From positions 12,125 to 76,124 of the IMG/VR virus record IMGVR_UViG_3300005719_000009: a stretch of DNA of 64,000 bases; one strand, given 5' to 3'. Position numbers and translations under genes: made by a program. Source of the DNA: a virus. Taxonomy: Duplodnaviria; Caudoviricetes. How positions within the stretch are numbered: the stretch's first letter is position 1; each line of letters opens with the position of its first letter. This document shows positions 11,723 through 54,312 of the stretch, piece after piece. The notes beneath the pieces are model-generated. The model was not told the origin of the DNA, ran no database searches, and worked only from the letters and a program-made list of their open reading frames with translations.

Positions 11723-12205
11723 ATGCATACAGAAAAACACTTTCAATTCGCCACACTCCTACAACAACACACCGGCATCGTATACAGCACCATATCGAAA
11801 TATGGGCACGAAGGCATCAGCCATGAGGACTTGTTTCAGGAGGTAGCCCTTAGAGCGTGGCAGGCTTATGATAGATTCAGGGGTGATGCAAAATTTAGCA
11901 CATGGCTGGCATATATCACCCGTAACACATGCGTTGATGCGTGGAGAAGATTAAAAACAACCGTTCAAACTGTAGCCTTTAGCAACTGTTTGTTTGAGGT
12001 AGATTTAGCAGACAATACTGAGGAATATCAAGAGCCGGTTTCGCTACCCACAATCGACTCCTTTACTACTATTGAAAAAACAACCCTTAACTACATTTTA
12101 GAGGGTTTAAGCTATAAACAAATAAGCGCTCTTACAGGAGAACCAACTAATAGAATCGCAGTGAGAATGCACCGGATCAAAAAAGAATTTGCAAAGCACT
12201 TATAA
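11723..12205 (+). CDS. ECF-type sigma-70 factor
   Basis: region 2 DLFQEVALRAWQAYDRFRGDAKFSTWL..ITRN..VD; region 4 GLSYKQISALTG...AVRMHRIKK. Confidence 0.9.
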   Translation: MHTEKHFQFATLLQQHTGIVYSTISKYGHEGISHEDLFQEVALRAWQAYDRFRGDAKFSTWLAYITRNTCVDAWRRLKTTVQTVAFSNCLFEVDLADNTEEYQEPVSLPTIDSFTTIEKTTLNYILEGLSYKQISALTGEPTNRIAVRMHRIKKEFAKHL

Positions 12206-12229
12206 CTATTTAGTTCGAGAAGGTAACAC

Positions 12230-12263
12230 AAAAAAGGGGCGATCACTCTTGATCTGGCCCCTT
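12230..12263 (-). terminator. intrinsic terminator at the early/late convergence
   Basis: GGGGC/GCCCC stem followed by T6 on the - strand, downstream of the endolysin. Confidence 0.65.
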
Positions 12264-12305
12264 ACTTACTCTTTAAGAACCCGCGAAACATCCAAAAATC
12301 GGGGT

Positions 12306-12914
12306 TTAGTTAATAATCGCCTTGCATCTTTCGTAAAACATTTCCCGTTCATCGAGCCCGTTAAAGCCGCCATTAATCCTTAACGTTATATATTCAACAG
12401 GATGAATGTATTTTATTTTTTTCTGGTATTTAACTTTAATTAGAACATGATCCCCCATGTTGGCGATAGTGTTGAAATCATGATGCGCCCAATAATCACA
12501 GGCGCTCCACACGGCATAATTTGGTTCAGCCAACAACGTAGGATTACCCCTGAAATCTACGTGTGATCGCCCTGATTCATTCCACGATATAGTAGCCCTT
12601 GTATAATTAGCCGCTCCGGTTACCATAAATATCCCTCTCCCTTTATACAATCTACCATCCCCGTCTTTTTGAGGCGTATTACCTAAATCAACTCTTGTGT
12701 CGTATGCATCACCCGTAGCGTATTCTTGCAGAGAATTAAATGAATCCGTTTCGTACGCCGCCTGTGCTATAAAATGGCAATACTCCGATTTTGTATCTAT
12801 GCCATAATGCGGGAAATAATCATTCATGCGATCTGCCAATGGTGCCAAGAGCTTGTACCCGCTTTTTTTACTCCCCGGTGCAATTTGTTTAAGTATATCT
12901 GCTGTAATGATCAT
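12306..12914 (-). CDS. endolysin, glycoside hydrolase family 19
   Basis: HFIAQAAYET, DLGN...GDG..YKGRG, INGGFNGL..R motifs; ATG at 12914 overlaps the upstream stop. Confidence 0.9.
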   Translation of the reverse strand: MIITADILKQIAPGSKKSGYKLLAPLADRMNDYFPHYGIDTKSEYCHFIAQAAYETDSFNSLQEYATGDAYDTRVDLGNTPQKDGDGRLYKGRGIFMVTGAANYTRATISWNESGRSHVDFRGNPTLLAEPNYAVWSACDYWAHHDFNTIANMGDHVLIKVKYQKKIKYIHPVEYITLRINGGFNGLDEREMFYERCKAIIN

Positions 12915-13339
12915 AAAAATACCTTCCACGCAATAGTTATAGAATAAAACATCGAGTACCAGAATACGATTTTCTTGCCGTCATAGTCAATGCCAAATAT
13001 CCTCCTTTCAACCTTGTCCCACCACGCCTTAGGTGGATTAGCCGCAGACTGATGATACCACGGCAAATGTCTGCGCAAATTCAACGGAATGTCAAAAGAT
13101 AATTGCCGATTACAAAATGCAGACATACAATATACAATTACATCTATGTATGGAAATTTACACCACGTTATTTCAGGCTTATTTGCCAACCAGTAAAGAA
13201 TAATTGAAAATACAGCATACGAGATGAAATTTACGCCATGCGCAATAGCCTTATCTTTTAATATTCGGTATGCATCAATACGAGAATTGATCAGATTGAA
13301 CCCGACAAGACAGCATTGATTTACGAGATACGCAATCAT
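12911..13339 (-). CDS. multi-pass membrane protein (lysis region)
   Basis: several hydrophobic segments. Confidence 0.65.
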   Translation of the reverse strand: MIAYLVNQCCLVGFNLINSRIDAYRILKDKAIAHGVNFISYAVFSIILYWLANKPEITWCKFPYIDVIVYCMSAFCNRQLSFDIPLNLRRHLPWYHQSAANPPKAWWDKVERRIFGIDYDGKKIVFWYSMFYSITIAWKVFL

Positions 13340-13557
13340 GACTTACTTTTGTCACCAAACCAAAAATAGCACCATCCAATAACGAGAGTAACCCCAGAGG
13401 CAATTGCGAGAATATCCCAGAACCTCCACCAGAAAGAATGGTTGGCGTAGTCACTAAGCCCCGGATATATAACAGGGCCAAACACGCAATTAAGCGCCGT
13501 AAACAACCAAAGCAAGTCTTTTAAGTTTTCTTTGAACCATGATTTTTGTGCTGACAT
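13336..13557 (-). CDS. two-TM membrane protein, holin candidate
   Basis: two hydrophobic helices, basic C-terminus. Confidence 0.55.
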   Translation of the reverse strand: MSAQKSWFKENLKDLLWLFTALNCVFGPVIYPGLSDYANHSFWWRFWDILAIASGVTLVIGWCYFWFGDKSKS

Positions 13558-13580
13558 ATAAATTGTTTTGATTAAATTAA

Positions 13581-14351
13581 TTACTTACGCCTTCTTAATG
13601 ACAGCGGTAAATTCATTTGTGTTTCAACCATTGTCCCATGTGTTCCCCAATAGCCCTTTACTCCATATTGCACCTTATACTTAGTTTGATACATTAAACC
13701 AACGCCAGCCATTTCAGGAAATGGCGACCATAAAACGCCCCATGAAAAATAAAGCTGCCCCTTAACGCCGGAGGCATTAACCGCATCCTTACTTATGTCC
13801 TTACTATCCTGAAGACTTTGGCCTAATTTTGATTTCTCTTGATCTTGTTGCGCTATCCTGTCTGTCTGTAGTTTTTCTTTAATACGTAACGAAAGTTTAA
13901 GCTGCTCATTATCTGACTTATATTGTTGCACTAATTTCTGCCCATTAGAAAGTTCAGTAAAACAACCATTACAATCAACTATAAATTCGTTTGGGACATA
14001 TGTATGTGACGTATCTGTATCCGGCGTGATTTCTTTATGCTTTGCAAGTAGCAAACTAATTCTTATATTCGCCACATCCAATTCATTGTTGATTCTTTCA
14101 ACCTGATTTTCTTTTATTTCTAATTGCCCATTAGCGACTTCCAGAGCGACTTCATAGTCTCTTTTGTTTGCCGCAAACTCAACGCTATCCCTTTTTGTTT
14201 TAGCAATAAGCGAATCATTTTTCGTTTTTAACTCATTACTTTCTTTAAAAGCATATTTTGCATTACCGCAACCTCTAAATAGCATAAATATCAATAAGGC
14301 CACACCAACAATTGATATTATAATAAGAACCGGACTAATTTTTATACTCAT
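13581..14351 (-). CDS. membrane-anchored coiled-coil protein, spanin-like
   Basis: N-terminal TM ending FRGC, long coiled coil, beta-rich aromatic C-terminus. Confidence 0.55.
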   Translation of the reverse strand: MSIKISPVLIIISIVGVALLIFMLFRGCGNAKYAFKESNELKTKNDSLIAKTKRDSVEFAANKRDYEVALEVANGQLEIKENQVERINNELDVANIRISLLLAKHKEITPDTDTSHTYVPNEFIVDCNGCFTELSNGQKLVQQYKSDNEQLKLSLRIKEKLQTDRIAQQDQEKSKLGQSLQDSKDISKDAVNASGVKGQLYFSWGVLWSPFPEMAGVGLMYQTKYKVQYGVKGYWGTHGTMVETQMNLPLSLRRRK

Positions 14352-14385
14352 ATTGTCATTGTTTTAACACGGCCAAATATAATAT

Positions 14386-14835
14386 CTATTGTTTGAATAT
14401 GTGTTTCTTGTTAGAAAATCCTATCAACATTGCACTAATAGTGCTTACGGTTAAAACACACATATATAAGATATAAGATGTTTTATAATTGTATATAAAC
14501 ATCGACAAATCAAATACATGATATGCAAAATAAATCAGCCACACTAAATACAAGCGAAAACTATACCGTTGCCATTGAAGATAATTTTCATAGTTTATAG
14601 AATACGCCTGACATGCGCCTGCATAAAGTATAGATGTTAGCAACATGCCGTCTTCGATCATTTTGAAATACCACAAAATATTCAGATCGGGCACTGAAAA
14701 TCCCGGTTTAATAAACCACCCGGAAACTATATAATTTACAGACTTTGGGCTTGCCCACATTATCAATGTATGTAGTTCTGTTAACAGGTGTGCGCCTATT
14801 AACAGAACTATTATTGTATAGTATCTTTTCTTCAT
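14386..14835 (-). CDS. multi-pass membrane protein
   Basis: about four hydrophobic segments. Confidence 0.65.
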   Translation of the reverse strand: MKKRYYTIIVLLIGAHLLTELHTLIMWASPKSVNYIVSGWFIKPGFSVPDLNILWYFKMIEDGMLLTSILYAGACQAYSINYENYLQWQRYSFRLYLVWLIYFAYHVFDLSMFIYNYKTSYILYMCVLTVSTISAMLIGFSNKKHIFKQ

Positions 14836-15029
14836 GGTGGAGTTCCGGGGCCATGTGGGGGATTGCTTCCTCCTTCACTATTGATACTTTGTCTTTCTAA
14901 CTTAACACACGCTTCACGGTGCAATACCTCTCGCGCCCGTTCCATTATAAGCCACGCGTCTGCATAAGTAATACCATTTAATGAAGCAATCAATTCTCTC
15001 GCTTTTTGTAAAATTTGATCTGAATCCAT
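14832..15029 (-). CDS. hypothetical protein
   Basis: 65 aa; ATGA overlap with the next gene. Confidence 0.55.
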   Translation of the reverse strand: MDSDQILQKARELIASLNGITYADAWLIMERAREVLHREACVKLERQSINSEGGSNPPHGPGTPP

Positions 15030-15049
15030 ATTGTTGCGTTATTTTTGTT

Positions 15050-34702: not shown

Positions 34703-35686
34703 TTAATCAAACAACGCCTTCAGTTGAACCGCAAAATCTTCTCCTTCCTGCAATTGCGAGAACTCGAACAATTTTTGCCCAATCGCCTCATTTGATTTCA
34801 TGCCAGAAATATCACAAATCACATTATTGCTACCTCTCCATGTCGCTTTATTAGGATTAAATTTATTTGAAATCAACCCTTCTGTCAACGCCTTTTCAAT
34901 GTAATATTTCATCTCAATGCTCTTATTGCCATAGCTCTCTATAAAATTGGCTGCATTTTTAATTGCTTCCTTCTTATAAAGAACCCGCACTTCTTCTGGT
35001 GTCAATTCGTTTTCAGAATCAAAATCAAAAAGAGGTATTTCAAGATATGATGCATGAATCATCATTTTCTTAACCGTAGCTTCTTTTGCCAGTTGCATTG
35101 CTTTGTCAATCTCTTCGAGTTTTTTATTTTCTTTTGACATTCTCAAAGTAGGATCAACTGACACAAAGATGGCATCTGCCGATCTGGTTCTAAACGGGCT
35201 GTTGGCGTTCCAGCTACAAATATTCAAATACAAAAGCAACATGCGCTCGTCCCCATAACATCCGAACTTGCCTTCAAGAAAATTACGAGGCTTTGTTGAT
35301 TTTATAAATATTTCAATATCCTCCCTCTCCTTTGGTTGCTCGTCTGCAAATATTGAGCTACACCCATCATAATATCTCACTATCCGACGCTGGCCCTTCC
35401 AAATCACTTGCGATGTGAATACTATGTTCTGAAAAGGCTTAAACCGTTTGTGAGGCTCAGGACGGGCTTTCTGCCCAACTATGCCAATTACAGGCAATTC
35501 TCTTTCAATGTTTTCCGTAGCCAACTCAAACACATATTTCTTAAATGGGTCAAATTCCATTCTTAAGTATTCCGCTTCAAGTGGATATCTTTCTTTTTCA
35601 ATTGTTTGCTGTTGAGCTATAGGCGGTGTTGCAGATAGCCGCTTTTTCTCTTTTTTTGGGGCTAACTCTTTATTAGCTTGTGCCAT
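34703..35686 (-). CDS. hypothetical protein downstream of MCP
   Basis: 327 aa, charged. Confidence 0.7.
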   Translation of the reverse strand: MAQANKELAPKKEKKRLSATPPIAQQQTIEKERYPLEAEYLRMEFDPFKKYVFELATENIERELPVIGIVGQKARPEPHKRFKPFQNIVFTSQVIWKGQRRIVRYYDGCSSIFADEQPKEREDIEIFIKSTKPRNFLEGKFGCYGDERMLLLYLNICSWNANSPFRTRSADAIFVSVDPTLRMSKENKKLEEIDKAMQLAKEATVKKMMIHASYLEIPLFDFDSENELTPEEVRVLYKKEAIKNAANFIESYGNKSIEMKYYIEKALTEGLISNKFNPNKATWRGSNNVICDISGMKSNEAIGQKLFEFSQLQEGEDFAVQLKALFD

Positions 35687-35740: not shown

Positions 35741-37147
35741 TTAAGAAATCAAACCTTTTAATATAGAAAATTGCTCGGCTGCTGTTACACGTGATCCAAC
35801 ATATGCGATTTGTTCATATTTGTTAGATGCCTCTGTTGTTTTTGTAGGCTTTGTATAACCTAAATCCCAACTGTAAATACGCTGTGAAGTTGGTATATCC
35901 GGGTTTTGCTGATATACCCATTGCATATAAGGACGCGTAGAACTATCTTTTGCATCCTGTGTCATGCCCTGTGGAACGCCAAACCCGAAGTTTGCCCGAT
36001 AATCGCCTACCGTTGGAGTATACCCGAAAACCGCCTGTGCGGTAAACCCTTTGTAACGGTGAAAGTGGAAGTCAAAAGTATCAGTAGAGAAACTCTTGAA
36101 GCCGTAGCTTACAGAAGCTTCTGCACTTTGCCCTACGCTGCCATAACTTATTGCTCCGTTACGATAAATACCAAACAGCAAGTTGTTTATATCCTGCCGT
36201 TGCTTTAAATCCTGAAGGAAGTGGTATTCACGTGGGCCACCATTCGCATCTAATACATTGGTGAAATTCTGAAAATCGCCAATCATGAAGTTATTTGTCA
36301 CATAATCCACTTCAGAGCCACGTGCAATTACATCAGGCAAAACCCCCACCGTACCAACGGTGCCGGAAATGTTCGCGTAAGGCACCCCTTCCATTACAGC
36401 ATCTTCAATATTCAGCATCATTTGGTCATTCATGGTCTTAACCGCCAAATATGGCAGGTAATAATTACCACCACCAAAATCAATCTGAGTTTTGTTCATG
36501 CCAGCCAAGTCGCTCGCCTTAACAGAAGCACGTGCAACTGTAGCAGTGTTGTCATAACGATACAACTTCTGCTGCTGTGTGCCCTGACTGTCGGACGCCT
36601 CCCCAGCTAACTGATTACCGAAGGTTTCCAGCCCCTCACCAGCCAATACAGTTGTGCCGGTTCCAGAGTGCACAGTATATGCCCCCATTGGGGTAAGCTC
36701 CAATACAAAGGCACTTGTGGTTCGCGTTACATTGGTAACCTTAAACTTCAAACCATTTGAGCGGAATTTTACCGTCTGGTTCAAAAGGAACGGCGATTGT
36801 GTCCCGGCAGTTCCATCATTATAGGATTGGGGGCTTTTAAGTGTCACATTCACAGCAGCACCACTTGCTCCCTGCGCAACAGTTGTAGCCACTAAACCAG
36901 AACCATAAGGACGGCCCTTTTCAAAATGCGAAAAAGTATTAGTAGTTGTATTTGTTTCCTCGATATTGGTTCTGCCCAAAATCTCCATTGCCAACATGTA
37001 CGAGTTGTTACCGTACTTAGCAATAAGACCCGGAATATAATCAGGGATAACAAAATTCAAGTCATTAAAAATACCGGTTGTTAGCCCGAGTGGATAACCC
37101 ACCGGGCCGGGCTGACCGGTTGCGCCTCTTACTATAGCACTTGGCAT
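35741..37147 (-). CDS. major capsid protein
   Basis: 468 aa after a scaffold-like gene, followed by a hairpin; residue pattern of crAss-related Bacteroidota phage MCPs (recalled). Confidence 0.8.
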   Translation of the reverse strand: MPSAIVRGATGQPGPVGYPLGLTTGIFNDLNFVIPDYIPGLIAKYGNNSYMLAMEILGRTNIEETNTTTNTFSHFEKGRPYGSGLVATTVAQGASGAAVNVTLKSPQSYNDGTAGTQSPFLLNQTVKFRSNGLKFKVTNVTRTTSAFVLELTPMGAYTVHSGTGTTVLAGEGLETFGNQLAGEASDSQGTQQQKLYRYDNTATVARASVKASDLAGMNKTQIDFGGGNYYLPYLAVKTMNDQMMLNIEDAVMEGVPYANISGTVGTVGVLPDVIARGSEVDYVTNNFMIGDFQNFTNVLDANGGPREYHFLQDLKQRQDINNLLFGIYRNGAISYGSVGQSAEASVSYGFKSFSTDTFDFHFHRYKGFTAQAVFGYTPTVGDYRANFGFGVPQGMTQDAKDSSTRPYMQWVYQQNPDIPTSQRIYSWDLGYTKPTKTTEASNKYEQIAYVGSRVTAAEQFSILKGLIS

Positions 37148-37177: not shown

Positions 37178-38377
37178 TTAATACCCTCCGTACCCCTTCA
37201 ACGAAGCCCTCATTTGCTTATCTAATTCACTTGGCTCTTGCGTTTGCGCTATTTGCCTTACTAAGCCGCCTTGTGTATTATCTGGCAAACTTGCCTTTAT
37301 AGCTGCGTTTTTCCCCTGATTGATTGCTGCCATAATAATTTTATCCTTATTATTGGCATAATAGATGGCATCCAAAAACAATTGTCTATTCGGGCTTCCA
37401 TCCGAATTAGTAAATGTCTGCCAAAACTTATCAGCGTCACACGCAGTTTCTACAGCTTTTGAAAATCCTTCCGCATCTGGCTCGTAATGAAACTCGAAGG
37501 CAATTTTATTGGCTTCATCATTAAAATTGATCTTAGTTTCGATAGCCTTTGGGGTCAAAGATTTATAAGCTTCTTTTGTCTCCAAATCCGACTTAGCTTT
37601 TTCTTCCAACATTTTCTTATATTGGATATAGCCTTCATCGGTAGGAGTTTCTATATCTGGGATGGAGAATTTCGTTCTTGCTTTTTCGAGATCGGGCCTT
37701 GTTAATTTAGCCTCAATCATCAAGTCCATTTGTTTTTCCGTAACCTGATCCTGCCAGTTGGATATTCTTTCCTGATACTCGGCATCTTCCTCTCCAACAT
37801 TCTGTGCGGGTTTTGGCGGGATTGAAAATTGCTTACCAAACCGGTAGTTTATTTCATCGGGGGTGAGGTCTTTGTATTTTAGCTGCATCCCCATTTTCAC
37901 AATGTCTGCTGCCGTTTCCTTTGTCACTTCGCCGGTCATGAGACTTTCAAGCCTCATTTCGCGATCCAAGTGCTGCCAAACTTCTTTTCTATCCCCCTTA
38001 GCAATAGCTCTCAAAAAAGCTGCACTTTCATCATCGGGCACCTGAAATTCTTGTGGCCGAGGCGCTGCCCTGAAAGCTCGCAAGTCCTCTATGTCTTTTA
38101 CTGCTGCTTCCGGGGTGTCATATCCGAATTTCTCCTTAAAAAGATCGAATGGATTAGACGCAACGGTTGTTGCGGAAGCGCCTGCGCCATCTGTTGACGA
38201 AGTGGCGCTTTCTATTCCACGTGAAACATCTGAACTTTCTGAATTTTCAGTAGAAGCAGGGGGCATGCCGCCATTAAGGCTTAATGCCATTTGCTGTGCT
38301 AATTCCGTCTTAAAATCTGGTTGTACTGTTTCCGTAGACTGATGTACTACTACAGGTTCATTAACATTGTCTGCCAT
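37178..38377 (-). CDS. capsid scaffolding-like protein
   Basis: acidic, helical, disordered N-terminus; directly upstream of MCP. Confidence 0.65.
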   Translation of the reverse strand: MADNVNEPVVVHQSTETVQPDFKTELAQQMALSLNGGMPPASTENSESSDVSRGIESATSSTDGAGASATTVASNPFDLFKEKFGYDTPEAAVKDIEDLRAFRAAPRPQEFQVPDDESAAFLRAIAKGDRKEVWQHLDREMRLESLMTGEVTKETAADIVKMGMQLKYKDLTPDEINYRFGKQFSIPPKPAQNVGEEDAEYQERISNWQDQVTEKQMDLMIEAKLTRPDLEKARTKFSIPDIETPTDEGYIQYKKMLEEKAKSDLETKEAYKSLTPKAIETKINFNDEANKIAFEFHYEPDAEGFSKAVETACDADKFWQTFTNSDGSPNRQLFLDAIYYANNKDKIIMAAINQGKNAAIKASLPDNTQGGLVRQIAQTQEPSELDKQMRASLKGYGGY

Positions 38378-43121: not shown

Positions 43122-43661
43122 TTAAATCATCCCCACTACCATGTCCTCATGAACTTTGGTTACCCTTTTCTCTATACCATTCCAGTTATACACAATGTCG
43201 TAGGCCGCGTTTGGGCGATGGAAAATTAGCTGTTCAAATTGATATGGCGCTCGGCCAGCATTAATTACTTTTACCCGGTTTATATGCGTTTTCATTTGCT
43301 CTACCGGGATCGGTATTTCGTATTCTATGGGAACTCGCCTGCAAATTATATTCCCACACATAGGCTTTATGTTGCCAAATGTATCCAAAACACCGAACAG
43401 GGTTTTATTAAACGGCACACTGTAAAGGTCATCCATAAGGTAGTATGGAGATGGAGGATAGAAGTGATTATGATGAAAAATCGCAATGTCCCCCTCCTTG
43501 ATATACGTGTTGCCTTGCACTATAACGCCAACTACCGGGCTTTTTTCCCGGTAGTTGTGTTCAAAAGGAAGGGCTGTTCTTACTGTTATACCTCCGATTG
43601 ATATGCGATCCTTCTGCTTCATATCAACCCGAACAATTATCTTGTTATTTACTGGTTTCAT
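43122..43661 (-). CDS. tandem (two-domain) GroES-like co-chaperonin
   Basis: two GroES-like starts MKPVNNKIIVRV and IKPMCGNIICRRV; IKEGDIAIF; ends EDMVVGMI. Confidence 0.65.
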   Translation of the reverse strand: MKPVNNKIIVRVDMKQKDRISIGGITVRTALPFEHNYREKSPVVGVIVQGNTYIKEGDIAIFHHNHFYPPSPYYLMDDLYSVPFNKTLFGVLDTFGNIKPMCGNIICRRVPIEYEIPIPVEQMKTHINRVKVINAGRAPYQFEQLIFHRPNAAYDIVYNWNGIEKRVTKVHEDMVVGMI

Positions 43662-43956
43662 ATACGATACCGATTATTTCTTCGCCTTGTAAGACTAAAT
43701 ATGTTTGACCTTCGTACTCTATTTCAAAACCGCACCCTTTATGAAATAGCGCTTTCTTGCCTTTCCCATTCTTTATATTATGGTCTTTCACCAAAGACCC
43801 GATACTGAATATCGTTCCCTTGTTAGGCTTAACCTTCCCTTCAGATGGGAGCAATAAACCAGATGTTTCTGATTCTGTCTTGTCCCTAAGTACAAAAACG
43901 CAATTATTTGTTGCTTTTGGTTGATTGTTCATATTATACAGATTACATTGTGTCAC
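43645..43956 (-). CDS. groES: co-chaperonin GroES
   Basis: SGLLLP...KPNKGTIFSIG...IEYEGQTYLVLQGEEIIGIV; true start probably an internal Met. Confidence 0.85.
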   Translation of the reverse strand: MTQCNLYNMNNQPKATNNCVFVLRDKTESETSGLLLPSEGKVKPNKGTIFSIGSLVKDHNIKNGKGKKALFHKGCGFEIEYEGQTYLVLQGEEIIGIVYETSK

Positions 43957-45505
43957 AAATAAGGCATTCGGAGGTAAGGATCATCCCAGCAGATGAGGCT
44001 GCATTCTGTAAAGCGCACCTAAGCACCTTGGTTGGGTCGATTACACCAGCCTCAACCAAATCCTCAATAACATCTGTCTTTGCATTATATCCGAAACTTC
44101 CGGCCAACCCTTTAACTTGTTTTAATATTTGCTCTGCATCTGTTCCGGCATTAAGGCAAATTTGCTTAAGAACCATTTCCATTGCAGAATCAACAACTTC
44201 ATTCCCAGATTTAACCCTTAACAATGTTGTTCCGCCGCCTGCCACATACCCTTCAGAAATGGCTGCTTTGGTGGCCCTTACTGAATCATCAAACCGATCT
44301 AATCTTTCTTTCATTTCGGTTTCCGTAGCAGCGCCAACCTGAATAACAGCAACGCCCCCAGTTAATTTTGCTATTCGCTTTTCAATTGGAAATTTTTCGT
44401 CTTCGTTTTTAGCTTGTGCTAAATTCATACGCAATTCATCCAGCAAATTTTGAAGCAAATCCTTATCTGTATCGCCGCCAATTATAACAGTTTCTTCTTT
44501 GTTAACGATAACCTTTTTCGCGAAACCTAAATTAGCTGGCTCTATTTCTTTTATATTGACACCACGCAAATCGCTAACATAGGAGCCCCCTGTTAATAAT
44601 GCAATATCTTCCATTTCCAAGCGTCTCGCCTCGCCAAAAGCAGGAGCCTTAACAACACAAACCCGTACCCGACCCTGAATAGTATTCATGGCCAAAAAAG
44701 CAAGACCCTCATCAACAGCATCTTCGCATATTATCAACAACGGATGCCCTTGTTTCATTGATATTTCAAGCGCTCTTTGAATTTGAGTATGATGATTTAT
44801 CCTGTTTTGGTAAATCAAAATCAATGCTTCCTCAAACTCGCATATTTGCTTTTCCTTGTTGTTTACAAATAAAGGAGAAACCCAACTCTGCTCCCACTTA
44901 TACCCATCAGAGATTTTTATTTCAGTGTCAACACTTTTACTTGGCTCCAAATCAATTATACCCTCATCCCCGATCTTTTCAAACGCCTTCGCAATCCACT
45001 CCCCGATTTCCGGGTCATTATTGGCTGAAATGGTGGCTATTTGTCGAATACGATTTATATCCCCCTTTATTGGCGTGGAAACATCTTTTAGCCTATCAAC
45101 AACAAGCCCAACAGCTTTGTCAATTTCTTTTTTCAATTCCATTGGATTAGCTCCTTGATTTATCAAGGCGATACCCTTTTCAGCAATCGCCTCGGCTAAA
45201 ACAACGGTAGTCGTCGTCCCATCACCGGCCTGATCAACTGATTTCTGGGATGCTTCCTTTATCATTAAAACTCCCGCTTGCTCAAATGGATCATCATGCA
45301 CTTCAAATGCCTTGGCAGTAGTATACCCATCTTTGGTAACGTGTATTGGTAAGTTATGTACCCCATAATCAACAACCATGCTTTGTGATATTAATACATT
45401 TCTGCCCATTGGTCCTAATGTAACCTTCACAGCAGCCGCGATCTTCTTAATGCCAGATAGCAATTTTGCACGAGCATCAGGCCCGTACAACGTCTTTTTG
45501 TTCAT
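43943..45505 (-). CDS. groEL: chaperonin GroEL
   Basis: VKVTLGPMGRNV, TKDG, AGDGTTT, KAPAFG, GGVAVIQVGAATETEMKE, GVIDPTKV. Confidence 0.97.
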   Translation of the reverse strand: MNKKTLYGPDARAKLLSGIKKIAAAVKVTLGPMGRNVLISQSMVVDYGVHNLPIHVTKDGYTTAKAFEVHDDPFEQAGVLMIKEASQKSVDQAGDGTTTTVVLAEAIAEKGIALINQGANPMELKKEIDKAVGLVVDRLKDVSTPIKGDINRIRQIATISANNDPEIGEWIAKAFEKIGDEGIIDLEPSKSVDTEIKISDGYKWEQSWVSPLFVNNKEKQICEFEEALILIYQNRINHHTQIQRALEISMKQGHPLLIICEDAVDEGLAFLAMNTIQGRVRVCVVKAPAFGEARRLEMEDIALLTGGSYVSDLRGVNIKEIEPANLGFAKKVIVNKEETVIIGGDTDKDLLQNLLDELRMNLAQAKNEDEKFPIEKRIAKLTGGVAVIQVGAATETEMKERLDRFDDSVRATKAAISEGYVAGGGTTLLRVKSGNEVVDSAMEMVLKQICLNAGTDAEQILKQVKGLAGSFGYNAKTDVIEDLVEAGVIDPTKVLRCALQNAASSAGMILTSECLICDTM

Positions 45506-46054: not shown

Positions 46055-46890
46055 ATTCTTTCCCTAACCTTTTCATAGTACTGTTTCGATGTTCCATTTA
46101 ATTCATGGAAGTAACTCTCTAATCCCTCCTGTGCAAAAAAATCATACGCCTTTTCACCAATAGGAATACAGTTAGGAGCAGCCCCGCACAATTCTAATAT
46201 TCTGGGAACCTTTTGCCCTTCCGATAATTGAAATGCCTGCGTTTGGTTTGTAATATGAAACTTGCACTGCTTAATAGCCTGTGCAAGCTCTAAAAAGTTA
46301 TTAACATTCAGCTTCCTTATGTTCAGATCATGGGTCATGGTGAACACATTGTATTCGCGCATTGTGCCACAAAACAACAAATCGTCTTCATAAGGCTTCA
46401 GGAATGAATAGTTGATGTTGTGGTTCAAATACCGCTCTGACCGGGTAATGAGGATTTTACCTTTTGCGAAATCTTTTTCAGCATCAGGTACATTTAACCA
46501 TACGCCTGAAAGATCACATGCCATGTCTGGATATACGTAGAAATACCACCGGTTAATCGAAAAAGAAGGCATACCCACGTATGTATCTCTGAATGCCCCT
46601 AATGGCACTTCAATTTCCTCGCCATCCCATGTTTTAACATCGGCTATACAAGGCTGTTCCATTAGCAGGGGGATCATCATATCGATCATTTTTTGATTTA
46701 GCATGACCTGCTTACCGTCTTCTGATTTTGTCGGATGCACGGCCCCTTCGTAATATAACGCTGGTATATCCTTGACTAAATAAAGAATTATCCTCCTTTT
46801 TGTCTTTCTATAAAACTCATTCATTGCTGGTATACTCGCGTGTACGTCACCGATATTTCCCGTGTGGGAGAATGTGGCTAATTTTTCCAT
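46036..46890 (-). CDS. glycosyltransferase, GT-B fold (GT9-like)
   Basis: N-terminal TGNIGDVHASIPAM; C-terminal LELAQAIKQCKFHITNQT. Confidence 0.65.
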   Translation of the reverse strand: MEKLATFSHTGNIGDVHASIPAMNEFYRKTKRRIILYLVKDIPALYYEGAVHPTKSEDGKQVMLNQKMIDMMIPLLMEQPCIADVKTWDGEEIEVPLGAFRDTYVGMPSFSINRWYFYVYPDMACDLSGVWLNVPDAEKDFAKGKILITRSERYLNHNINYSFLKPYEDDLLFCGTMREYNVFTMTHDLNIRKLNVNNFLELAQAIKQCKFHITNQTQAFQLSEGQKVPRILELCGAAPNCIPIGEKAYDFFAQEGLESYFHELNGTSKQYYEKVRERIKKTAQ

Positions 46891-47513
46891 TTCTTATTTT
46901 GCTTTATTTTTTTAATATGTGAAATGCTTACTTTGTATCTTTCTGAAAGTGCCTTATCCGATTCTAATGATGCTCTTATGTTGTATGCTTGTTGTATCGA
47001 TAACTTAGTGCTGCTCCTGTTTTGATTATTAACAGAGGCGGTAACAAATGAACATCTTTCAGGAGAGTATAAGTCGGGCGTTACCCCTAACTGATTAGCT
47101 TTAATGTCTTTATCCAATTGAAGTCCTTCCTTCCAGCCGTTTTCTATAGCCCAATTAAAAAACGAAACAAAGTTTTTATCCCATATATCACAAACACGAA
47201 CTCCTTTGTCTACGTAATTTTTATGTGATGCATGATTTTTGCTCCTGCATCTTGCCTTCATGCCCTTCCAGACATCGTACAAGGGATGTTCCCTGTACTC
47301 GAAAGTAGTTCTTGGCGTTCTATTACAACCGCAACTTTTCCAATGCCCCCTATTCAACTCATAGCCAACAACTATCTTTTCATTCCCACAATCGCATAAA
47401 CAAAGAAACCTTGTTGCCTTGTTATTTGATGGCATCTTTTCTTTTACTAAAAGCATTCCGAATCTTTGGCCGATCAGGTCAAGTCTTTTGGGGCCTCCCT
47501 TATTCACCATCAC
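46878..47513 (-). CDS. HNH-type homing endonuclease-like protein
   Basis: DLIGQRFGMLLV...CLCDCGNEK, VWKGMKARC, GVRVC..W...F..F..W, QLDK, YSPERC.F...SVNNQN. Confidence 0.8.
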   Translation of the reverse strand: MMVNKGGPKRLDLIGQRFGMLLVKEKMPSNNKATRFLCLCDCGNEKIVVGYELNRGHWKSCGCNRTPRTTFEYREHPLYDVWKGMKARCRSKNHASHKNYVDKGVRVCDIWDKNFVSFFNWAIENGWKEGLQLDKDIKANQLGVTPDLYSPERCSFVTASVNNQNRSSTKLSIQQAYNIRASLESDKALSERYKVSISHIKKIKQNKKWKN

Positions 47514-47698
47514 TGAATATCTTTAATCAGCCACAAATATATTTCTTCTGCGTTTTCCAATAACGTACTTGTTACATGAGCCTGACCGGTGCTTTGGGCG
47601 TACTGAACAGCTAATTTTCTACAGGCAATTTTTTCTATATTAACCCATAATTCGTGTTGTGCTTTTTGGTTGCTTTTTGAAATTTCTTCTGGTGTCAT
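47510..47698 (-). CDS. small phage hypothetical protein
   Basis: MTPEEIS...RKLAVQYA...LENAEEIYLWL. Confidence 0.65.
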   Translation of the reverse strand: MTPEEISKSNQKAQHELWVNIEKIACRKLAVQYAQSTGQAHVTSTLLENAEEIYLWLIKDIQ

Positions 47699-47718
47699 AT
47701 TTTTATTTTTTGATGTTC

Positions 47719-47982
47719 TTAATTTCCGTTGCCGTCTTTGAAACACTCATATAATTTAGGATTTTCTGTTTTGTCTTTTTTTAATAATTCATATTCATCT
47801 GTCCAATTAATATTACCATACTTTTCAATCAGCTTAGGCATATAATCTGGCACAATAAAATTCATGTTCTGAAGTAGATTCCTTGTGTTTGGTACTCCCG
47901 GTGGCTTTACCTGAAGCTGAGTAATAATATCTGGTGCCACCACAATCATAACTATTTGCCTCAAAAAACTACCTCTATTCAT
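47719..47982 (-). CDS. small protein containing a copy of the MCP N-terminal arm
   Basis: NFIVPDYMPKLIEKYGN vs MCP NFVIPDYIPGLIAKYGN (12/17 identical); Tat-like start MNRGSFLR. Confidence 0.75.
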   Translation of the reverse strand: MNRGSFLRQIVMIVVAPDIITQLQVKPPGVPNTRNLLQNMNFIVPDYMPKLIEKYGNINWTDEYELLKKDKTENPKLYECFKDGNGN

Positions 47983-49016
47983 GCTGGTATTTTTTGATGA
48001 TTAGGTAATGTTTCGTAAAGTTGTTCCGGGATGGTTTGCTTTATTTTAGCAACATCCGAATCATTAAGCTGCGTATCGTGATATGCAGATATTGCCCATA
48101 AATGCGTTAACCCATTCTCCATAATCGTTCTTTCCTGTTGTTGTCTTTCTTTTCCCGGCAACCATCTAACCTCTGTTGGGATATTATAAATCTTTTTATT
48201 ATTTGCCAATAACCAATAGTTAAACCATTGGCCCGGTTCGTACCCAATTCTGTATATTATTTTTGCCCGATTATCCAATAGTAAATTCGGAACATCATCA
48301 GAGTATGTTCGTTGCCCATATGTTCTTACTGATTCCTGTAATCTTCCCATGCCGTTATGCATAGGCCCGACAACAGGCATGTAGTGAGTAGCCTTTTGCT
48401 CTGCCTTCTGCGGGAAATATGGTTTATATCCTTCAGACAACTCAATATAATCTTCCGGGCAAATCAAAAAGTTATTGACTATGCTTTTATGAACCATAAT
48501 ATGGCAAGCAAAAGACTCCTTCATAGCCATATTCGGGAAATAAAAATACTCTATATTTTTGCAATACAAAGCTGCTTCAAGCCATGCGCCTCTTCTGTAT
48601 AATGCACCTGCCGGATGCATATAAGCGCCACCAGATAATTCAAGGTGAGAACCAGCAGCATCACAACCAGAGTCTATGAATTGCAAATAATAATCCAGCC
48701 AACCTTCCTTAGTTGGGAAGCTATCGCTCTCCATGCATATAACCCATTCATTGGAGGCCATTTCAAATAGCACATCATACCCTATGCCATGTGATTGCAG
48801 CTTATCTTTAGGATACGGGAACACGGTTATTTGATCTTTGAATGGTTCAAGATATTTTATACTCCCATCATCTGCGTTGTTGTCGCATATGAGTATTTCA
48901 ATGTCATGATCGCCTTTATACTTTAATATTTGCGCAACAGTATAGGCTGTCATTTTGCCTGTCTTCCAGTGGCATAAAATTATGCTAAACTTCATTTTAT
49001 GTTTATTTTTTTTCAA
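47979..49016 (-). CDS. glycosyltransferase, GT-A fold (GT2-like)
   Basis: FSIILCHW, EILICDNNADDGS, VICMESDSFP. Confidence 0.8.
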   Translation of the reverse strand: MKKNKHKMKFSIILCHWKTGKMTAYTVAQILKYKGDHDIEILICDNNADDGSIKYLEPFKDQITVFPYPKDKLQSHGIGYDVLFEMASNEWVICMESDSFPTKEGWLDYYLQFIDSGCDAAGSHLELSGGAYMHPAGALYRRGAWLEAALYCKNIEYFYFPNMAMKESFACHIMVHKSIVNNFLICPEDYIELSEGYKPYFPQKAEQKATHYMPVVGPMHNGMGRLQESVRTYGQRTYSDDVPNLLLDNRAKIIYRIGYEPGQWFNYWLLANNKKIYNIPTEVRWLPGKERQQQERTIMENGLTHLWAISAYHDTQLNDSDVAKIKQTIPEQLYETLPNHQKIPA

Positions 49017-52313: not shown

Positions 52314-53236
52314 CCGCGCATATCTTTTCCTGTTACATCAATAATGTTAAACATATCCTTTATCCTACTCCTAACTCTAAACCCATACTTTTGTTCTAAT
52401 TCTAAAAAAGAATTATTTGTGCTCATCATAATATGGTTAAAAGTCTGCTTTCTTAAGTATGTCCCCTCTATGAAATTTTTGAAAAAGTTTATCACATTGC
52501 CATAATGCTTTGCTGATGATTCTTCAGTACCTACATCGTCTAAATACAAAATACCATATCCATCTAAGCGGATATTAACCTCCCCGTTCAATCTTATCTC
52601 ATCTGAAATTTCAAGCATACTCAAAATCAAAATCGGATTGAACCCGTTTTTGCAAATACATTTCACAAGATGTGTTTTGCCTAATCCAGAAACACCACGT
52701 ATCAATAGCCCCTTTTTAAAAGAATATCCAAGCTCTGTTTCAAACCTATTATCTCTGGAAACAAAAAAGCAAAGAGCCGTAATAAGTTTAGTGAAGTCAT
52801 TGCCATTCTTTTCTTTTATTATGAGTTTTTTACCAAACTCATTTTGACTTGTCCACGCCATTAATTTATAAATATTAGCGGCTGTCCATGTTTCTTGTAG
52901 TTCCTTTAATTTTCTCGCCTCTTCTAAAACATCTTTTACACGCTGTTCTTTCACCCACTTATCATAATGCTTTATTGAATTTGCGCGTTGAAGAATAAAG
53001 TCTTTGTCTATTTTTTCATCCCAATTAATTTGAGATATTTTAAAATCAATTTCATCTTCTGTTTTCAAAATACCCCTCATCTTCCATGCGCAATGTTCTT
53101 TTGCCGATCTTATTTCATGTTCAATAATTTTAGCTTCTTCATCAGGAGTAAGAATGTATTCTTCAATAGCATCATCAGGGCCGATCAAATTCAATCGTTT
53201 TGCCAACCGTTGAAGATTGTTGTTGATGTGTTCCAT
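52310..53236 (-). CDS. DnaC/IstB-like AAA+ ATPase (helicase loader)
   Basis: Walker A GVSGLGKT, Walker B LYLDDVGTE, MSTN, YGFRVRSRIKDMFN. Confidence 0.85.
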   Translation of the reverse strand: MEHINNNLQRLAKRLNLIGPDDAIEEYILTPDEEAKIIEHEIRSAKEHCAWKMRGILKTEDEIDFKISQINWDEKIDKDFILQRANSIKHYDKWVKEQRVKDVLEEARKLKELQETWTAANIYKLMAWTSQNEFGKKLIIKEKNGNDFTKLITALCFFVSRDNRFETELGYSFKKGLLIRGVSGLGKTHLVKCICKNGFNPILILSMLEISDEIRLNGEVNIRLDGYGILYLDDVGTEESSAKHYGNVINFFKNFIEGTYLRKQTFNHIMMSTNNSFLELEQKYGFRVRSRIKDMFNIIDVTGKDMRG

Positions 53237-54131: not shown

Positions 54132-54259
54132 TAAGATAAAAATTATACGGCTAAATTATTGTGGTTAATCGATGTTTCAAATTATATTTCTCAATTGTGG
54201 ATATTTATTCCCTTTTGGGAAATTGTTTTCACAATGGCCGTATCTGTTTATGCAAAACA

Positions 54260-54289
54260 GGGGGGGGTGTAAAAATTTACACCCCCCCC
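54260..54289. other. perfect 14-bp hairpin with G8/C8 homopolymer arms
   Basis: GGGGGGGGTGTAAA-AA-TTTACACCCCCCCC. Confidence 0.7.
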
Positions 54290-54312
54290 CAGAATTCGCA
54301 ACCGGCTTTTAT

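Follow-up and report, generated by a model that had tools for sequence, protein, structure and literature searches.

The window analyzed here is a 64 kb stretch of a 76,124-bp phage contig (G+C, 38.8%). It carries a long block of leftward genes, extending from about 57.4 kb to 12.3 kb, in which replication genes are followed by a methyltransferase/glycosyltransferase cluster, a small open reading frame (ORF), and a 78-aa ORF together with an HNH endonuclease gene (Table 1). The block then continues with the genes for a 284-aa protein, GroEL/GroES, portal, TerL, a scaffold-like protein, the major capsid protein (MCP), and large ejection/tail proteins. In the window, as well as in the loci of clade-2 and other relatives (the two MCP clades are described below), the small gene is always co-oriented with the packaging and head genes and is located upstream of them. 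On the minus strand between 54258 and 43000, no terminator was found apart from one weak hairpin at 52634–52646, and a scan for sigma-70 promoters gave a result no better than that obtained with shuffles. The main minus-strand candidate upstream of the glycosyltransferase/head block is a strong terminator-like hairpin at 54258–54291, which has a G9/C8 stem.

Table 1. Features of the small gene, its neighbors, and the head genes to which it is compared (window coordinates)
Feature	Position	Strand	Basis
GT2 glycosyltransferase gene	47979..49016	-	Pfam PF00535, E 2.2e-8; translationally coupled to small gene
Small gene, 87 aa, leader plus MCP N-arm module	47719..47982	-	ORF; start coupled to GT2; purifying selection
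Leader, residues 1–24, MNRGSFLRQIVMIVVAPDIITQLQ	47911..47982	-	Conserved in 58 members
MCP N-arm-like module, residues 32–87, core NFIVPDYMPKLIEKYGN	47722..47889	-	hhalign to MCP 22–83
78-aa ORF and HNH endonuclease (211 aa)	46878..47746	-	phrog_374 HNH, E 2.8e-47; directly after small gene
Scaffold-like protein, 399 aa	37178..38377	-	phrog_16786; position between TerL and MCP
Major capsid protein (MCP), 468 aa, clade 1	35741..37147	-	phrog_13704 virion structural protein, E 7.8e-18
MCP N-arm segment, residues 22–83	36899..37084	-	Part copied by small protein

The order of the GT2 gene and the small gene is repeated in the relatives L001, L002, and L022. The ATG codon of the small gene overlaps the GT2 stop codon as ATGA, and this coupling is identical in L001 and L002. 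Two close homologues, with 57–61% identity over the full-length alignment, occupy the same place after the GT2 gene. A shorter form starting at Met12, as called in these homologues, was considered and rejected; the 87-aa form stands because its 11 additional N-terminal residues are conserved in frame and because, in three genomes, its start codon overlaps the stop codon of GT2. The pN values of the small gene (0.12–0.27) are well below the pS values (0.60–0.77), which corresponds to a dN/dS of about 0.2–0.3 at saturated synonymous sites, and its divergence is similar to that of the flanking genes. By these comparisons, the small ORF is a real gene under purifying selection.

The 78-aa ORF, the true start of which is probably a later ATG near 47698, and the HNH endonuclease gene look like a homing-type insertion beside the small gene, because neither is listed at this position in L001 or L022. 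Near the small genes of the window and of clade-2 relatives there are homing endonucleases and an intein; in the clade-2 relative L019, the TerL gene (11798–15043) encodes 1081 aa with Hom_end_hint/Hom_end (intein) domains, compared with about 691 aa in L020 and L021. GroEL/GroES (window 43122–45505) are present in the clade-1 loci that cover the region (this window, L001, L003, and L022), and no GroEL/GroES were found in the equivalent region of the clade-2 relatives (L019–L021 and L024; 20-kb loci), where the small gene directly follows GT9/DUF5672 and methyltransferase genes. The proposal, made from the sequence alone, that the small protein might serve as an adaptor for GroEL is therefore unlikely, since clade-2 relatives have the small gene and no chaperonin in these loci. 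The same reading had placed the gene 10 kb from the MCP gene within the glycosyltransferase cluster; the distance is 10.6 kb, and the position inside or beside that cluster holds only for this clade.

The MCP is identified by its PHROG match and also by gene order, following the portal, TerL, and scaffold-like genes. Its language-model neighbors are the SU10_MCP and Crass_capsid clusters (score 0.98), and 478 MCP homologues were found; Pfam gives no match, and a tblastn search of GenBank phages returned no match for the MCP or for the small protein. The N-arm is nearly invariant among 120 MCP homologues. In an AF2 model of the MCP built from 35 sequences, the mean pLDDT is 38.7, that of the N-arm is below 30, and residues 83–176 alone are confident. 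These residues (36620–36900, minus strand; pLDDT 70–87) form a beta-rich domain directly after the arm, which may be an E-loop insertion domain like the I-domain of crAss001, as judged from the model. The gene directly after the MCP gene (34703–35686, minus strand) encodes 327 aa, has counterparts of 303–306 aa in L011, L028, and L029, and sits where an auxiliary capsid protein like crAss001 gp36 might be expected; its only PHROG match is weak (E 0.0019). No prohead protease was recognized among the head-region proteins scanned with Pfam and PHROG.

The scaffold-like protein would be a candidate for binding the N-arm. Where an HK97-fold phage has a separate scaffold, the N-arm docks the scaffold C-terminus in the procapsid and later contacts neighboring capsomers, and the scaffolds of P22 and 80alpha dock on the MCP N-arm. 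The scaffolds of the two MCP clades are only about 20% identical to each other. The small-protein family has no similarity to the scaffold alignment (hhalign probability 0.4%). At about residues 93–105 of the scaffold (38060–38100, minus strand), there is a conserved Y-F-K-x-x-F-G motif that loosely resembles the arm motif L-I-x-K-Y-G, at the same hhalign value of 0.4%.

The similarity between the small protein and the MCP was first noticed as a match of residues 41–57 to MCP residues 31–47, with 12 identical residues of 17, and recomputation gives exactly this figure, with 37 of 51 nucleotides matching. Exactly five of the identical residues (P, P, L, Y, and N) use different codons, in line with the earlier count of at least five. 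At the DNA level, the two genes share no identical stretch longer than 8 bases, which bears out the further claim that the match is kept at the protein level rather than by a recent DNA duplication. Recent duplication or gene conversion from the MCP gene was accordingly rejected, with no pair of genes carrying a recent conversion. The alignment is both significant and longer than first noted: BLASTP aligns residues 24–69 with MCP 12–59 (19/48 identical; E 7e-10 as a single comparison, a value that withstands correction for the few thousand ORF pairs of this genome), and a profile–profile comparison by hhalign over 60 columns aligns residues 32–87 with MCP 22–83 (98.8% probability, E 4.8e-17). 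Throughout the whole 76-kb genome, the arm motif is found only in the MCP and the small ORF, and the leader of the small protein was found on no other ORF; the idea that the motif is a general capsid-targeting tag on many proteins was rejected on these grounds.

The likeness to the phage's own HK97-fold MCP covers MCP residues 22–83 and retains the invariant P..Y....KYG core and a predicted helix-turn-helix. In contrast to the MCP, the small protein is without an E-loop, P-domain, and A-domain and so would form no capsomer, and MCP residues 1–21 are replaced by an unrelated conserved leader. With 87 residues ending at about MCP residue 83, it falls short of a complete HK97 fold, and the homology is restricted to the N-arm. 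AF2 predicts helices at residues 3–15, 17–22, 34–39, 47–55, and 60–73 and no compact fold (pLDDT 66, pTM 0.23); the predicted helices 47–55 and 60–73 mirror the predicted MCP helices 35–45 and 51–56. Separate helices without a compact fold are as expected for a peptide that would fold on a partner. Many members of the family extend to an F-x-H-[FY]-E strand that matches MCP 72–76, and these alignments show the module to comprise the putative helix-turn-helix of the arm, which surrounds the invariant K-Y-G, and to reach as far as the first strand. The tail of the module in this gene, LLKKDKTENPKLYE, is specific to its sub-family; an origin by copying from another gene was rejected, as no other copy is present in the genomes searched. 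Residues 35–56 of the MCP itself (36980–37045, minus strand; L-I-A-K-Y-G-x-x-x-Y-x-x-x-x-E-I-L-G-R-T) give non-significant PDB matches to Myb/SANT repeats and Nop16 (E 0.05–0.8), which are probably due to chance, yet are consistent with a helix-turn-helix.

Exhaustive profile searching combined with a word-based search places the small protein in a family of about 60 clusters of 60–150-aa proteins; scans for the small protein in viral and metagenome contigs mostly returned MCP arms or short contigs. Neither the small protein nor the family matches any Pfam, PHROG, or NCBIfam family, and a profile search of the PDB gave nothing below E 0.05. Up to E 10, only four PDB chains matched the family profile, all at chance level; chance-level matches in the PDB searches included a Myb/SANT-like LIxKYGxxxW. 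A literature search for capsid mimics and N-arm paralogues found no relevant description, and we know of no published description of such a leader-tagged arm family.

The N-terminal leader is constant in layout across the family, with the consensus M-x-R-[RSKG]-S-phi-phi-[KR]-S-L-phi-x-phi-A-x-A-P-K-phi-phi-A-E. Among 58 leaders, Arg3 is invariant, Pro17 is present in 56, and the uncharged stretch is 9 residues long in 53; comparison of L019 with L021 gives a pN of 0.036 and a pS of 0.38 for the leader, indicating strong purifying selection. In the AF2 model, the leader forms two helices, the first of them amphipathic, separated by a Pro kink. The leader also occurs on unrelated cargo, namely a 53-aa ORF of L010 (151–309), a 93-aa ORF of G015, and L052 1309–1590, and the family members P0185–P0188 have lost the arm motif and kept the leader. 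These leaders on unrelated or degenerate cargo suggest a cassette site with a constant address tag.

The family spans at least two MCP clades of crAss/SU10-like phages of about 65–79 kb. Clade 1 comprises MCPs of 468–483 aa, which are of the type found in this phage; those clade-1 loci that extend far enough have GroEL/ES upstream. Clade 2 comprises MCPs of 476–484 aa with the arm LQLLTPQYYK.FVEKYG.ENWTWWL, in loci without chaperonin. Overall identity between the clades is about 29%. Both genes are readable in 11 genomes. In eight of these, the module type corresponds to the genome's own MCP clade (clade 1, 4/4; clade 2, 4/7), and these cognate versus non-cognate counts are by themselves not significant (hand-calculated one-sided Fisher p ~0.11). 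All four clade-1 genomes (this window, L022, L031, and L032) have clade-1-like modules. The clade-2 genomes L019, L021, L027, and L029 have modules identical to clade-2 arms at 25–30 of 54 positions and to clade-1 arms at 8–15 of 54, whereas the modules of the clade-2 genomes L020, L024, and L028 are clade-1-like. The tracking of the cognate MCP by the homologues, on which the sequence-only reading depended, is thus seen in part: it holds in these 8 of 11 genomes, with clade-2-like modules grouping with clade-2 arms, and breaks down in the three clade-2 genomes with non-cognate modules.

In the tree, the MCP arms of clade 2 are nested with seven small modules of the clade-2-like type (97/87, starred). 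An arrangement with all MCP arms as one clade apart from the small proteins is rejected by the AU test (delta lnL 54.5, p 1.7e-5), for a group that was named after the first tree had been seen. Because all small proteins share the leader, while the MCP arms are not one clade, the arm module must, on the evidence of the trees, have been exchanged with MCP genes at least twice. Moreover, proteins with identical leaders carry either type of module, and modules are therefore swapped as cassettes. Between L019 and L020, nucleotide identity is 0.75–0.87 in the leader, 0.33–0.50 in the module, and 0.73–0.85 at the 3′ end and downstream, a profile that by its shape is that of a cassette swap at the DNA level. 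The closest pair of genes has 6 non-synonymous versus 0 synonymous differences, which is not significant and is a hint only.

The small gene is not present in every relative. Profile searching of IMG/VR records did not find it in the complete genomes G002 (65.7 kb), G009 (78.7 kb), and G011 (75.9 kb); in these, as in several partial genomes, the search finds only the MCP's own arm. Because it is missing from three complete relatives, the small gene is regarded as accessory rather than as an essential or core assembly factor. Taken at the level of sequence comparison, the small protein is shown to consist of a conserved 24-residue, putatively amphipathic leader and a free-standing paralogue of the MCP N-arm, which is under selection and yet dispensable.

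The reading that we prefer, to which we assign a probability of roughly 0.4, is that the small protein would be a cytoplasmic competitive mimic of the N-arm that acts on the partners of the arm in head assembly and is used in phage–phage or phage–host conflict, probably against co-infecting relatives. The small gene would share its long leftward transcription unit with the head genes, and its product would stay in the cytoplasm, where the arm module would compete for whatever the MCP N-arm normally binds; the expected partners are the scaffold C-terminus in the procapsid and the neighboring capsomers in the shell. The leader would supply a second conserved contact. The protein would then act as a factor in conflicts, by modulating or sabotaging the assembly of capsids, most plausibly those of co-infecting relatives, rather than as a core part of assembly; it is read in this way because the gene is patchy in distribution, fast-evolving, sometimes of the other clade's type, and located among homing-endonuclease insertions. 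The non-synonymous differences of the closest pair, although not significant, fit the same reading.

Several points tell against the competitive-mimic reading. Gene conversion between paralogues together with horizontal transfer could give the observed pattern without selection for mimicry, and a phage that makes a mimic of its own arm would poison its assembly too, unless this is averted by timing or dose. The Tat-like features of the leader could mean that the protein leaves the cytoplasm. In addition, the presence of the leader on non-MCP cargo (the L010 and L052 ORFs given above, and P0186) may mean that the leader, not the arm, defines the function. A bolder version, which we put forward as speculative and consider somewhat doubtful, is a capsid-directed interference locus in which a constant address leader is re-armed again and again, through recombination, with N-arms newly captured from contemporary MCP genes of the phage's own or a rival clade, such that dominant-negative mimics would either sabotage head assembly in co-infecting relatives or make host sensors blind to the arm.

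It is also conceivable, if unlikely, that the small protein is exported or directed to the membrane. The leader would then be a short Tat- or Sec-type signal and the arm would act in the envelope, for instance in superinfection exclusion by binding the ejected proteins of incoming relatives, within an island of surface-modifying glycosyltransferase and methyltransferase genes. The layout of the leader resembles that of a SufI-type signal: the basic n-region, which contains R-R-x-phi-phi-K in 24 of 58 leaders, precedes a hydrophobic stretch rich in G/A/S/T, and Pro-Lys is followed by a phi-phi-A-E site, a candidate for cleavage on export. The weak language-model neighbors of the protein (0.80–0.83) include a TAT_signal cluster and a periplasmic hydrogenase small subunit, and scores below 0.9 are to be read as leads only. 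The leader is portable to other cargo and is constant across clades whose scaffolds have diverged as described above, which fits a host partner, and the small gene lies beside glycosyltransferase/methyltransferase genes in both clades. Another small ORF in L023 (2138–2422) starts in a classical Tat-like fashion, MDRRNFFRSLMGGALAGS, and matches only the first 11 leader positions.

The details of the leader, in contrast, do not fit a Tat signal well, and the Tat-like or amphipathic start noted from the sequence alone is part of a strongly conserved leader. This copy reads N-R-G-S-F-L-R, with RG instead of the twin arginine of S/T-R-R-x-F-L-K; position 4 of the 58 leaders is R in 24, S in 18, K in 11, and G in 4, so that RR is missing in 34 (in a smaller set of 54 leaders, RR, RS, RK, and RG number 22, 18, 11, and 3, respectively). 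The uncharged stretch is fixed at 9 residues, which to our knowledge falls below the length of all known Tat h-regions and is insufficient for a membrane helix, and h-regions of signal peptides are seldom this conserved in sequence. Among Tat HMMs, Pfam TAT_signal matched one of 27 members, at E 0.11, and NCBIfam gave no match. The small protein thus lacks the twin arginine, the h-region length, and the curated-model match that mark Tat signals.

A slightly less likely alternative than export is that the small protein is an anti-defense decoy or inhibitor, in which the arm would occupy a host immune sensor of the MCP N-arm and the leader would prevent activation or remove the sensor. The near invariance of the MCP N-arm would make it a good recognition target, and the accessory, fast-turnover, cassette-like behavior of the gene is typical of counter-defense genes. 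Defense systems that sense the MCP exist, such as Avs7 and Dsr1 (PMC13581612). However, it is the conserved core fold of the MCP monomer, not its extensions, that the characterized Avs sensors envelop, and a fragment consisting of the arm alone would not fill them (PMC13581612). The non-cognate modules in three of the seven clade-2 genomes are also hard to explain by a decoy, neither a defense-related context nor a PADLOC-type neighbor was seen around the small gene in its Pfam and PHROG annotation, and the gene lies among replication, glycosyltransferase, and head genes rather than in an early anti-defense block.

It is improbable that the small protein is a minor component of the virion, either a stand-in around the portal vertex, where penton N-arms are missing, or an internal protein loaded through binding of the arm module to the scaffold, as analogy might suggest. 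The SU10/crAss-like character of the MCP and the placing of the small gene upstream of, and in the same orientation as, the head genes would suit such a role. The three complete relatives without the gene and the occurrence of non-cognate modules speak against it, and no PDB chain, including crAss001 gp57 if deposited, matched the family profile beyond chance. In capsid-targeted internal proteins of the T4 IPI–III type, an N-terminal targeting sequence is removed by a prohead protease; among the head-region proteins scanned here no such protease was recognized, and a cleavage motif was not found. The gp57 protein of crAss001 is a small auxiliary protein of the portal vertex that forms a disulfide-bonded dimer and is not described as MCP-derived; this dimer has no counterpart in the small protein (PMC10172136).

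A link to glycosylation is very unlikely. In that case, capsid glycosylation would depend on recognition of the arm motif, with the small protein acting as a second acceptor, primer, or regulator, as might be suggested by the translational coupling to GT2 in clade 1 and, in clade 2, by a location immediately following the GT9/DUF5672 and methyltransferase genes; however, L007, L010, and L023 have no glycosyltransferase in their available upstream sequence, and the shared position may simply be an accessory region between the replication and head modules. Finally, a decaying, functionless partial duplicate of the MCP gene would account for the copying of a fragment only and for the dispensability of the gene, but can practically be dismissed given the open frame, a pN well below pS in all comparisons, the coupling of the start to GT2, and the retention of frame, leader, and K-Y-G core in about 60 diverged clusters.

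The known systems closest in logic to the competitive mimic are satellite scaffold mimics and MCP paralogues. Satellites encode small scaffold mimics that copy one side of a capsid-assembly interface; in SaPI1, the small protein CpmB mimics the C-terminus of the phage 80alpha scaffold and redirects capsid assembly. Like CpmB, the protein described here is small and accessory, copies one side of the scaffold–capsid interface, and would compete in assembly. Unlike it, the small protein copies the N-arm side and is phage-encoded and leader-tagged, whereas CpmB copies the scaffold side and comes from an element in conflict with the phage; the small-protein family also has no similarity to its cognate scaffold. 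The T4 vertex protein gp24 and SaPIbov5 Ccm are full-length MCP paralogues that arose by duplication and act on the capsid lattice; they keep the whole fold and become lattice subunits, whereas the small protein is an arm-only paralogue of 87 aa. We know of no phage-encoded, leader-tagged copy of the capsid side with repeated MCP exchange and cassette swapping that has been described to date.

Binding to the scaffold or to capsomers, if it occurs, would make the small protein a natural peptide that inhibits or regulates HK97-type assembly, and would provide a handle on phage–phage competition in Bacteroidota-type viromes associated with soil and plants. If the protein is instead exported or acts as a decoy, it would represent a new use of capsid sequence. 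Should the locus prove to be one of capsid-directed interference, it would be a polymorphic, cassette-type weapon against the most conserved interface of the capsid.
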